Position numbers and translations under genes: made by a program. DNA of 3,133 bases from a plasmid, in assembly GCF_057098645.1 (NCBI RefSeq), contig NZ_JBXSPU010000007.1, one strand, 5' to 3'. Below the pieces are notes generated by a model. The model was not told the origin of the DNA, did not search any database, and saw only the letters and a list, made by a program, of their open reading frames with translations. Below are positions 1-3,133 of this stretch, piece by piece (position 1 is the first letter of the stretch; each line of letters starts with the position of its first letter).

Positions 1-300
1 GATTGTATTGTTTATCGCATTACGCAGAGCAACCTCAATCATCTGGACAAGACAAAAAAAATCGCCAGACAGATCTTGGTAGGCAACGTATGCCCCAACC
101 TTTTCTTGATCAGTAGCGCACCCAAGAAATGTTTCATAGAAAGATAATCTTGGTACAGAAATTGAGCTAATTAAACTTGTTGTATCCATGAAAACTCACT
201 TATCTCTTTACTATGAATATTTTTCAGACTACCATTACAACATTCGAGGAGCAGGCGAACTACCGTTTTTCTGTGTACCTCTAGAGCGTAAAATATAACA

Positions 301-647: not shown

Positions 648-971
648 CTAATCTGCCATAAGCCTGGATAACAGGGCCCGGTGATACTCCGTAATAGCGA
701 TCAGCACCTCCGCATACTCTCTGTCCCCGACACGCTTGCCGTCGATAAAGAGTTTTTTCTGTAACGCCCCCAGTCTCATAACTTCTTTCAGTACCCGATC
801 ATCAGTCAGTGAGTTAACTTTCTTACCGAGAGCTGCCGCCCGTAAAAAACCGGAAACGGTCTTGCCGCATTCAGCAGCCCTTTTTCTGATTTCCTGGTCT
901 TCTTCTGCCGTCAGACGAACAGGGCGACTGATAGCCCGCCTGCGCGTATTACTTCCACTTCGTTTTGTCAT
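648..971 (-). CDS. mobC: MobC-family relaxosome accessory protein (ribbon-helix-helix N-terminus), 107 aa
   Basis: From track ORF 648..1061 (-). Preferred start is the internal ATG at 969..971 (MTKRSGSNTRRR...), preceded by GGAG 9 nt upstream on the minus strand. The stretch RPVRLTAEEDQEIRKRAAECGKTVSGFLRAAALGKK, followed by DDRVLKEVMRLGALQKKL, fits the MobC pattern (RHH beta-strand plus two helices, then the conserved leucine-rich helix) as I recall it. The track start at 1061 would lie inside the oriT inverted repeat. Confidence 0.7.
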   Translation of the reverse strand: MTKRSGSNTRRRAISRPVRLTAEEDQEIRKRAAECGKTVSGFLRAAALGKKVNSLTDDRVLKEVMRLGALQKKLFIDGKRVGDREYAEVLIAITEYHRALLSRLMAD

Positions 972-990
972 AAAACATGGCTCCGTATCT

Positions 991-1075
991 GACATGGGGT
1001 GTCGGGGCGAAGCCCTGACCAGGGTAATTGTAATAGCGCGCATGTATGCGCGGTATAACAATTACACATCCTGTC
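991..1075 (+). other. Candidate origin of transfer (oriT/bom-like)
   Basis: Directly upstream of mobC and divergent from rom. 996..1023 (GGGTGTCGGGGCGAAGCCCTGACCAG) closely resembles the pBR322 bom-region string GGGTGTCGGGGCGCAGCCATGACCCAG as I recall it. It is followed by a 20-bp imperfect inverted repeat (1024..1065) and then ATCCTG (1068..1073), which resembles MOB_P-type nick cores. Confidence 0.55.
1024..1065. repeat. Imperfect inverted repeat in candidate oriT (arms 1024..1043 and 1046..1065, 17 of 20 positions complementary)
   Basis: Left arm gtaattgtaatagcgcgcat; reverse complement of right arm gtaattgttataccgcgcat; centre at 1044/1045. Seen directly in sequence. Confidence 0.85.
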
Positions 1076-2299: not shown

Positions 2300-2328
2300 T
2301 TAAGATTTGATGTCAGATATGGTATAAT
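2300..2328 (+). promoter_or_regulatory. Candidate sigma70 promoter with extended -10 (TGgTATAAT 2320..2328; -35 TTAAGA 2300..2305, 17-bp spacer)
   Basis: Perfect TATAAT with TG at the extended -10 position, seen in sequence, in an AT-rich intergenic block. Predicted start at about 2335, pointing rightward at the small ORF and palindrome. Confidence 0.45.
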
Positions 2329-2401: not shown

Positions 2402-2545
2402 ATGAATACTAAAGTTCTTTTTGTGAAAAAAGCCTTGAAATCAATTACTTGCGCAATTCTTTCGCTCTTACCGGCTTTAAGTCGCGCAGTAACAGAGTTA
2501 CGTAGCCTTTCGGCTGCGCGACTTAAAGCCGGTAAGAGCTTTTGA
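2402..2545 (+). CDS. Hypothetical small basic protein, 47 aa (49 aa if started at ATG 2396); not on the ORF track
   Basis: Shine-Dalgarno AGAGGA (2388..2393) is 8 nt before ATG 2402. Translation MNTKVLFVKKALKSITCAILSLLPALSRAVTELRSLSAARLKAGKSF, TGA at 2543..2545. Both arms of the perfect 26-bp inverted repeat lie inside the ORF, so it may instead be the 5' part of a structured non-coding RNA. No homolog recognised. Confidence 0.3.
   Translation: MNTKVLFVKKALKSITCAILSLLPALSRAVTELRSLSAARLKAGKSF
2464..2539. repeat. Perfect 26-bp inverted repeat (arms 2464..2489 and 2514..2539) with 24-nt spacer, followed by TTTTG
   Basis: Left arm gctcttaccggctttaagtcgcgcag; the right arm is its exact reverse complement. 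The spacer contains a small secondary hairpin (agcc-tttc-ggct, 2504..2515). Seen directly in sequence. Confidence 0.9.
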
Positions 2546-2569
2546 TTGTATCACATTTTTCCTTAAAAG

Positions 2570-3133
2570 TCAACCGGCTACCTTAAGCTCCCTGCACTTA
2601 ATCCTCCCTATAATCCCCATAACATACTCTATCGTGCAGCGTTCATAAAAGCGCCTATCGTGCCCAATAAACTCAATAAGTTCCTTTTTCTCGTTAGAGA
2701 CGATACTCAAGGCATTCATTAAAAAATTGAACTCTTTCAACATATTATTTATGGCTTGACTATGCGACTTGCAGTGGTGTTTTTTCCAAATAGGCTCATG
2801 GTGAAAAAGTCGATTCCTAAACAAAAGAACTTTATGAAACTCGTCAAACAACGCTTTAACCTTCATATCCCCCCCACCCAAAGGATTCTTCGCATGAGGA
2901 AATGTTTTTGCCTTGTTCTCTGGAGTCCAGATGTAGCACGGCCTTTGCGTATCCCTATATGGGGCATCTAACATATAAACCCAAAAGCCAAAGGTTAGAC
3001 GGCAAATAACATCATCATCCGTATACCTTACGCCACACTCATCTAGCGCTTTTTGTTTCGCATTTAAAACAAGATCCTGAGATTTCTTTGTTTGAGGTAT
3101 AGAGTCGTACCAAGCAGGCCCATGATTAGCTTT
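2570..3133 (-). CDS. Abi_2 (AbiD/AbiF-like) abortive-infection family protein with HEPN-type Rx4H motif; C-terminal 187 aa, N-terminus beyond the window
   Basis: Minus-strand frame is open from the window edge (3133) to TGA at 2570..2572; the track ORF 2570..2974 is its internally initiated part. Motifs: LTFGFWVYML, and FRNRLFHHEPIW matching the Abi_2 hallmark R-N-x-x-x-H-H-x-x-(L/I)-W, which contains the HEPN Rx4-6H signature. AT-rich codon usage differs from the backbone. Family call is from motif memory. Confidence 0.65.
   Translation of the reverse strand, partial: KANHGPAWYDSIPQTKKSQDLVLNAKQKALDECGVRYTDDDVICRLTFGFWVYMLDAPYRDTQRPCYIWTPENKAKTFPHAKNPLGGGDMKVKALFDEFHKVLLFRNRLFHHEPIWKKHHCKSHSQAINNMLKEFNFLMNALSIVSNEKKELIEFIGHDRRFYERCTIEYVMGIIGRIKCRELKVAG

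Follow-up and report, generated by a model that had tools for sequence, protein, structure and literature searches.

AbiF toxins are kept in check by a structured non-coding RNA that is encoded upstream, is co-transcribed with the gene and binds the protein, as described for RCd22 with abiF motifs (PMC12373285) and for AbiFr (PMC12737573). PD-T4-5 is a plasmid-borne, distant relative of AbiF/D that acts in abortive-infection defence (PMC9519451). In plastids, inverted repeats mediate small inversions through hairpins, by which loops of 4–50 bp are flipped between the repeat arms (Kelchner & Wendel 1996, and others; PMC12371153).

The DNA studied here contains a perfect 26-bp inverted repeat that sits 30 nt downstream of the stop codon of an AbiF-like HEPN gene. 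The arrangement is similar to that of AbiF, RCd22 and AbiFr in that a structured RNA, here a predicted one, would lie beside an AbiF-like HEPN gene; however, the known RNA is upstream, co-transcribed and conserved, whereas the repeat is downstream, specific to one lineage and without a match to the Rfam family RF03085. A second comparison is offered by the par locus of plasmid pAD1, in which two convergent RNAs (Fst RNA I and RNA II) have a terminator hairpin in common. Here too, two convergent units meet at one hairpin, and loop interactions between complementary 3′ ends are conceivable. The two loci differ in that the small open reading frame (ORF) found here is unlike a membrane toxin, there are no direct repeats for a 5′ interaction, and an abi mRNA ending in the repeat is only hypothetical.

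A ColE1-type plasmid whose only cargo is an AbiF-like gene

The window, by which we mean the whole stretch of 3,133 nucleotides that was analysed, is a complete circular ColE1-type mobilizable plasmid, and identical 3133-bp plasmids of E. coli and Salmonella are present in PLSDB/RefSeq (e.g. pCol4401, NZ_CP047017.1). Besides the Abi gene and a 47-aa ORF, it has only mobA, rop and a small ‘replication initiation protein’ ORF located in the origin; the original prediction was right that there is neither a reverse transcriptase nor a repeat array. A search of the window with the full Rfam library at E ≤ 1 returned RNAI of the ColE1-type origin at 2095–2195 (95.9 bits), terminator look-alikes at 291–338 and meaningless miRNA-precursor matches on the repeat. 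The features to which the following sections refer are:

1–189, minus strand: 5′ part of the AbiF-like gene (residues 1–63); RefSeq WP_016249639.1 spans the record origin
2300–2328, plus strand: predicted sigma-70 promoter TTAAGA-17-TGgTATAAT with an extended −10, 10/12 matches plus TG
2402–2545, plus strand: 47-aa ORF (49 aa from 2396), a hypothetical protein in the PGAP annotation (WP_152918943.1, WP_016249640.1 and others)
2464–2489, unstranded: left arm of the perfect 26-bp inverted repeat
2490–2513, unstranded: 24-nt spacer with two mini-hairpins, exactly inverted in some relatives
2514–2539, unstranded: right arm of the inverted repeat
2540–2547, plus strand: T-rich tail TTTTGATT, directly after the stem, as read from the sequence
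2545–2573, minus strand: promoter-like TTGACT-17-TGaTACAAT with an extended −10, overlapping the abi stop codon
2570–3133, minus strand: 3′ part of the AbiF-like gene (residues 64–250), crossing the circular junction

Read across the circular junction, the AbiF-like gene is an in-frame ORF of 250 aa on the minus strand (189 to 1, then 3133 to 2570), which a linear ORF scan cuts to 134 aa. The 250-aa protein is matched by the PADLOC PD-T4-5 model at 6.6e-30 and weakly by Pfam Abi_2 (0.017), and its HEPN-type motif, RNRLFHH, is invariant. The predicted structure has a pLDDT of 95.5, and its best fold match in the PDB is the complex of PbAbiF with its ncRNA (8vz6; probability 1.00, TM 0.54), with the next match at a TM of ~0.2. 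PbAbiF was recovered by the fold search only, a direct sequence search of the PDB with the Abi protein having returned no match. This AbiF-like HEPN defence gene is the only cargo of the 3.1-kb plasmid. Neither the circularity of the DNA nor the AbiF-like HEPN neighbour had been noticed in the original prediction, and these two elements of context weigh most in the interpretation of the repeat.

Sister plasmids that carry other cargo (RelE/ParE, NERD) are homologous to the window only over 428/431–2197. Because the backbone homology ends at 2197 and at 428–431, the repeat is placed ~270 bp inside the cargo, away from the backbone junction, and the suggestion that it might be the junction scar of an AT-rich cargo insertion does not hold. 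The homology to the sister plasmids (L068, L069) stops at 2197, which is the 3′ end of RNAI and the start of RNAII, so that the RNAII promoter lies outside the shared backbone; this promoter, TTGAGT ... TAATCT (~2232 to 2204 on the minus strand, as read from the sequence), is on the variable cargo side.

On the mobilization side of the plasmid, an oriT-like inverted repeat, GGTAATTGTAATAGCGCGCATGTATGCGCGGTATAACAATTAC (1024–1068), adjoins a small MobA/NikA-like gene (648–1061, minus strand). A relaxase ORF is absent from the ORF list of the 3.1-kb plasmid, yet MOB-suite assigns it to type MOBF.

Anatomy and folding of the inverted repeat

The perfect 26-bp inverted repeat with its 24-nt spacer was confirmed exactly where it had been predicted, with 26/26 complementarity between the arms at 2464–2489 (GCTCTTACCGGCTTTAAGTCGCGCAG) and 2514–2539. 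The flanking bases (CTTTC and TTTTG) are unpaired, so that the inverted repeat cannot be extended. By our own arithmetic (3133 positions × 58 spacer lengths × 4^-26), the chance expectation of such a repeat is ~4e-11. For the 96-nt region as RNA, the folding energy is −55.4 kcal/mol on the plus strand (shuffle mean −24; z = −9.4) and −55.9 kcal/mol on the minus strand (shuffle mean −22; z = −10.4), and none of 200 shuffles matched the RNA folding energy of the repeat. The fold of the repeat as DNA has an energy of approximately −36 kcal/mol (z ~ −10).

A mini-hairpin had been proposed within the spacer; hairpins are indeed present, in the number of two rather than one (GTAAC-AGA-GTTAC and (A)GCC-TTTC-GGC(T)). 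Each of them recruits 1–2 bases of the inner arm ends, which makes the apex of the repeat a small three-way junction. On the minus strand, the apex consists of one GAAA-looped and one UCU-looped hairpin.

The exact symmetry centre of the repeat is occupied by a 6-bp palindrome, TACGTA (2499–2504), the remainder of the spacer being asymmetric. A palindrome of this type at the symmetry centre has a chance of ~1 in 64, and it could be coincidental or what is left of a longer palindrome.

A putative terminator at the end of a predicted short plus-strand unit

On the plus strand, ~165 bp upstream of the repeat, lies the predicted promoter at 2300–2328 with its perfect TATAAT, from which a transcript of ~210 nt ending at the repeat is predicted on the basis of the sequence. 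Both hexamers of this promoter are unchanged in all variants aligned, and a single position between them, 2314, is either C or T. The 47-aa ORF is the only ORF in this short unit; it is encoded largely by the hairpin, through which it reads from end to end, and its stop codon lies in the T-run. Homologues of the ORF were confined to the plasmid lineage, PADLOC, NCBIfam and PHROG gave no match, and its variants are mostly non-synonymous. The encoded peptide is basic, with a hydrophobic stretch of only 13 residues, and matches no toxin family. In one relative (L037), a 13-nt deletion in the spacer shifts the frame of the ORF, yet a perfect stem, now of 31 bp around a 3-nt loop, remains and is followed by the same tail; what survives there is thus the stem and tail, not the reading frame. 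We consider the coding status of the 47-aa ORF doubtful.

The repeat has in common with intrinsic terminators a stable, G+C-containing stem (−55 kcal/mol, z = −9.4) with a T-rich tail immediately behind it, on the strand with a predicted upstream promoter; in common with both intrinsic terminators and 3′ stabilising stem-loops, it is positioned between convergent units. The tail, TTTTGATT, contains six T in eight positions and is U-rich on the plus strand only, the corresponding tail after the stem on the minus strand being GAAAGAAT. The differences are in proportions: the repeat has a perfect 26-bp stem where ~5–14 bp are usual, its apex is a 24-nt junction of two hairpins instead of a loop of 3–8 nt, and its U-tract is short, with only four residues before the interruption (UUUU, then GAUU), on one strand. 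A terminator scanning tool, which has limits on loop and stem, did not call the repeat, nor did it call the L037 version with its 3-nt loop and 31-bp stem. A textbook example of a terminator is present on the same plasmid at 291–338.

Taken together, we tentatively favour, at slightly less than an even chance, a reading in which the repeat is a factor-independent terminator and 3′ protective hairpin of a short plus-strand RNA, shielding abi from antisense transcription. The anatomy of the repeat, its context, its distribution and the flips are shown directly, whereas the promoter, the transcript ends and termination itself are what we infer here. According to this model, a short rightward unit, with its promoter at ~2300–2328, its start near 2335 and its end near 2543–2547, would be wedged between the ColE1 origin and the convergent AbiF-like HEPN gene, and the repeat would stop a strong predicted promoter, with a perfect extended −10, from reading antisense into abi. 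The long perfect arms, in turn, may occasionally allow the spacer to be inverted or deleted through hairpin or template-switch events, with no need for a dedicated recombinase.

Of the several roles suggested earlier, two are retained in part. A bidirectional terminator between convergent genes had been proposed; the T-rich TTTTGATT supports a terminator, and as such a tail is found on the plus strand only, with GAAAGAAT on the minus strand, we read it as one-way and not as bidirectional. A processing or stability element of a small transcript had also been considered, and this agrees in part with the position of the repeat at the 3′ end of a plus-strand unit with a predicted extended −10 promoter. 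A point against the terminator reading is that an equally good promoter-like site on the minus strand abuts the repeat.

Distribution of the repeat

A 358-bp segment containing the repeat was found in 23 PLSDB plasmids, all belonging to the same lineage, and 27 of 5426 complete E. coli genomes (~0.5%) carry a 3.1-kb mobilizable plasmid with the repeat. Phage records and viral contigs contained no copy of the segment. The inner-stem pattern had 23 matches in metagenomes, two of which are contigs of the same lineage and 21 of which are unrelated chance hairpins.

Recurrence in unrelated contexts, as would be expected of a MITE-like element, was searched for, and the repeat was found in this plasmid lineage only; a MITE or a dispersed repeat of the REP/ERIC kind was rejected, as plasmids, E. 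coli genomes, phages and metagenomes contained no copy outside the lineage. No target-site duplication is present at the ends of the repeat (flanks ...CTTTC / TTTTG...). An integron attC site was likewise rejected, and the earlier judgement that the repeat is too perfect for one was borne out: the pairing is perfect at 26/26, there is no GTTRRRY core at the ends, and the plasmid has no integrase. The 3133-bp circle contains no reverse transcriptase ORF that would go with a retron msr/msd and no repeat array that would go with a CRISPR element, and both of these were discarded.

The plasmid segment is also contained, at 100% identity, in two chromosome records of E. coli strain 44 (NZ_CM132959.1, at ~3,380,900, and NZ_CM132951.1, at ~3,381,600), which reflects either chromosomal integration or a scaffolding artefact.

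Downstream of Abi homologues, the repeat is absent at 67% protein identity (L021–L024) as well as at 53–57% identity (L025 from Aeromonas, and L032–L035); in L021, the stop codon of the homologue is located ~70 nt before the RNAI terminator. As these homologues occur without the repeat, the Abi gene does not need it. The repeat is outside the conserved Abi cassette and particular to one shallow plasmid lineage.

The spacer flips between intact arms

In six of the sequences collected, the arms are intact and the 24-nt spacer between them reads as its exact reverse complement: two from metagenomes (L036, L041), two full-circle Logan contigs (k=31; L064, L065) and two NCBI isolates (L066, L067). 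In the protein collection, the flipped orientation is represented by 17 contigs and the orientation of the window by ~1000, i.e. ~2% are flipped, and the flipped spacer occurs in six protein variants on at least three backgrounds. Apart from the flip itself, the common 1168 A>G polymorphism and at most one private SNP each, the four flipped contigs with the background of the window are identical to it; the linked 1168G and the small number of SNPs fit a real inversion that was inherited.

A second perfect repeat on the plasmid, the hairpin at 291–338 with 22-bp arms and a 4-nt loop, behaves in the same manner. Its loop (313–316) is changed from ACAG to CTGT in L041 and in the complete plasmid CP148472 (L063). 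CP148481, judged by its entry in the BLAST table, has the same four mismatches as CP148472. Since the loop of a terminator hairpin flips as well, flipping needs no dedicated site; it is a generic property of perfect hairpins on this plasmid and matches hairpin-mediated small inversion. As in plastids, there is an exact reverse-complement swap between intact arms, on several backgrounds and at a second hairpin; the difference is that it takes place here on a bacterial ColE1-type plasmid and in ~2% of contigs, where it may arise by template switching or by recombination.

Two other causes of the flips were considered. Assembly error as the sole cause is less likely, given the full-circle k=31 Logan contigs, the linked 1168G and the flipped loop in complete plasmids, and it may be a residual contributor. 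A site-specific invertible switch was rejected, as no recombinase gene is present on the plasmid, the flipped segment measures only 24 bp where one long enough to synapse would be expected, and a 4-nt loop flips too.

Two protein variants, P0068 and P0091, have C-terminal extensions that leave the plasmid sequence after the right arm, and both, judged from the proteins, were disregarded. The extension of P0068, in our own back-translation, reads as the reverse complement of the sequence to the left of the repeat, i.e. a probable fold-back, and P0091 looks like a fold-back or an otherwise rearranged contig.

Variation in the arms and competing readings of the repeat

Among six aligned plasmid variants, whose flanks diverge by ~2%, no arm position differs and the spacer differs once; with only ~1.2 changes expected in the 52 arm nucleotides among six variants, the invariance of the arms is not significant. 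The common change in the spacer is A>C at 2504. Rare variants have single changes in the left arm (2471 C>T and 2480 A>G) and uncompensated changes in the right arm at 2522, 2536 and 2537–2539, as inferred from protein variants, those at 2536 and 2537–2539 including transversions. A plus-strand RNA keeps a G·U pair with 2471 C>T, 2480 A>G and 2522 C>T, and with 2538 G>A, which 25 contigs carry, the pairing is kept in a minus-strand RNA alone. Of the single transitions in the arms, four in all, three thus favour the plus-strand RNA and one (2538) the minus-strand RNA, which gives weak support to the plus-strand reading. The common sub-lineages of the plasmid have no arm change except that at 2538, and a 484-nt draft contig (L039) has four changes in the right arm (2514, 2519, 2521 and 2522). 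No compensatory pair was seen in the arms among the variants of the lineage, whose divergence of at most 4% is too shallow to reveal structural selection.

In another reading, the repeat would have no selected function and would be a young palindrome, produced by inverted duplication or template switch and carried along in a recently expanded lineage, its perfection reflecting youth or correction of one arm by the other. We regard this as unlikely. In its favour, the element is confined to a lineage with at most 4% divergence, in which ~1 substitution expected in 52 arm bases means that perfection requires no selection; the uncompensated arm changes in rare variants are about as dense as changes in the rest of the ORF; the spacer flips and is deleted freely; and there are Abi homologues without the repeat. 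What speaks against it is the orderly placement of the repeat, after a promoter-driven unit, before a T-run and between convergent genes, along with the absence of arm changes, other than that at 2538, from the common sub-lineages.

The minus-strand promoter-like site suggests a different arrangement, in which the repeat would be the 5′ hairpin of a minus-strand RNA (from 2573–2545) fully antisense to the plus-strand unit, the two forming a pair like a type I toxin–antitoxin system or a regulator overlapping the 3′ end of abi, with the apex loops serving as kissing loops. The site, TTGACT-17-TGnTACAAT, scores 10/12 with an extended −10 and, as predicted from its sequence, would start the RNA at the first base of the stem; its −10, TACAAT, is changed to the consensus TATAAT in one plasmid (CP091670). 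The GAAA-looped and UCU-looped hairpins of the minus-strand apex and the 2538 G>A variant, which retains pairing in the minus-strand RNA only, point in the same direction. However, promoter-like matches of this stringency occur about five times per shuffled window, there is no convincing terminator on the minus strand, and three of the four arm transitions favour the plus-strand RNA. Of the features of type I toxin–antitoxin systems, convergent promoter-like sites are present; the 47-aa peptide is basic, with only the short hydrophobic stretch, and has no family match. Neither the plus-strand RNA, the minus-strand RNA nor the spacer loops showed complementarity to the 5′ region of abi above that of shuffles. 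On balance, this arrangement appears improbable.

A function of the repeat as DNA, either as a single-stranded hairpin, for example in complementary-strand priming after mobilization, or as a symmetric site for protein binding or recombination, would be in keeping with a mobilizable plasmid (MobA/NikA-like protein and oriT-like repeat), with the high stability of the DNA hairpin, with the 6-bp palindrome TACGTA at the symmetry centre and with the spacer inversions, in which the arms interact as DNA. It is nevertheless very unlikely, as the plasmid has no gene for a recombinase or partner protein, the element is missing from sister plasmids that share the backbone and the mobilization region, the 24-nt spacer disfavours cruciform extrusion in duplex DNA, and flipping is also seen in the loop of the plasmid's ordinary terminator hairpin.

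We assign a similarly small chance to a reading modelled on shared RNA ends, by which the repeat would be the common complementary end of two convergent RNAs, the abi mRNA or minus-strand RNA and the short plus-strand RNA, and would provide a lineage-specific, second RNA control of the AbiF-like HEPN toxin, as an antisense or as a protein-bound decoy. If this were true, flipping of the spacer would alter the loop sequences that mediate contact between the RNAs.

Conserved elements upstream of the AbiF-like gene

On the minus strand, ahead of the gene (240–345), the perfect 22-bp terminator-like hairpin at 291–338 is followed by an almost invariant motif of ~50 nt, TTTACGCTCTAGAGGTACACAGAAAAACGGTAGTTCGCCTGCTCCTCGA. 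Both the hairpin and the motif are kept in homologues at 53–67% protein identity and are not in Rfam. They were located at the following positions:

L021, 1975–2125: upstream hairpin plus motif
L025, 2850–3000: upstream hairpin plus motif
L032, 2350–2500: upstream hairpin plus motif
L033, 2250–2399: upstream hairpin plus motif

The motif being invariant, covariation in it is uninformative. RF03085 had no match in the window at E ≤ 1, and 19 related loci compared with Rfam yielded nothing at the gathering score. The upstream hairpin and motif are a candidate for an AbiFr-like RNA partner, or for a regulatory leader, of this Abi clade. As the non-coding element conserved across the family, they are placed on the same side of the gene as the RNA of AbiF.

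That the hairpin RNA of the repeat itself should serve the AbiF-like HEPN protein as an antitoxin or decoy, after the fashion of AbiFr or RCd22, is highly improbable, since, for all that the neighbour is AbiF-like with PbAbiF and its ncRNA as the best fold match and that the repeat always accompanies this abi allele in PLSDB, it is located downstream of the gene with promoters of its own, does not match the Rfam abiF family (RF03085) and is missing from homologues at 53–67% identity, for which the upstream motif is the better candidate.

A second, more distant Abi clade, from Vibrio, Aliivibrio, Rheinheimera, Thalassotalea and Alishewanella, has its own strongly conserved structured leader of ~150 nt upstream of the start of the Abi homologue. 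This leader (L002, L004–L008) begins with a hairpin, GAGCCACCCT-cgaa-AGGGTGGCTC, contains one compensatory pair and has no match in Rfam.

Discussion

The repeat itself is of little import, since it is most likely no more than a terminator hairpin of unusual size, restricted to a single plasmid lineage. Two by-products of its analysis are more interesting, namely the conserved element upstream of the AbiF-like gene and the flips of the hairpins. The flips of spacer and loop illustrate hairpin-mediated small inversion cleanly in bacteria. They also call for caution in annotation, as two 47-aa ‘alleles’ that are 81% identical in databases are one hairpin in two orientations. The upstream hairpin and motif, absent from Rfam, could be the AbiFr-like RNA partner of the PD-T4-5 clade represented on this plasmid.
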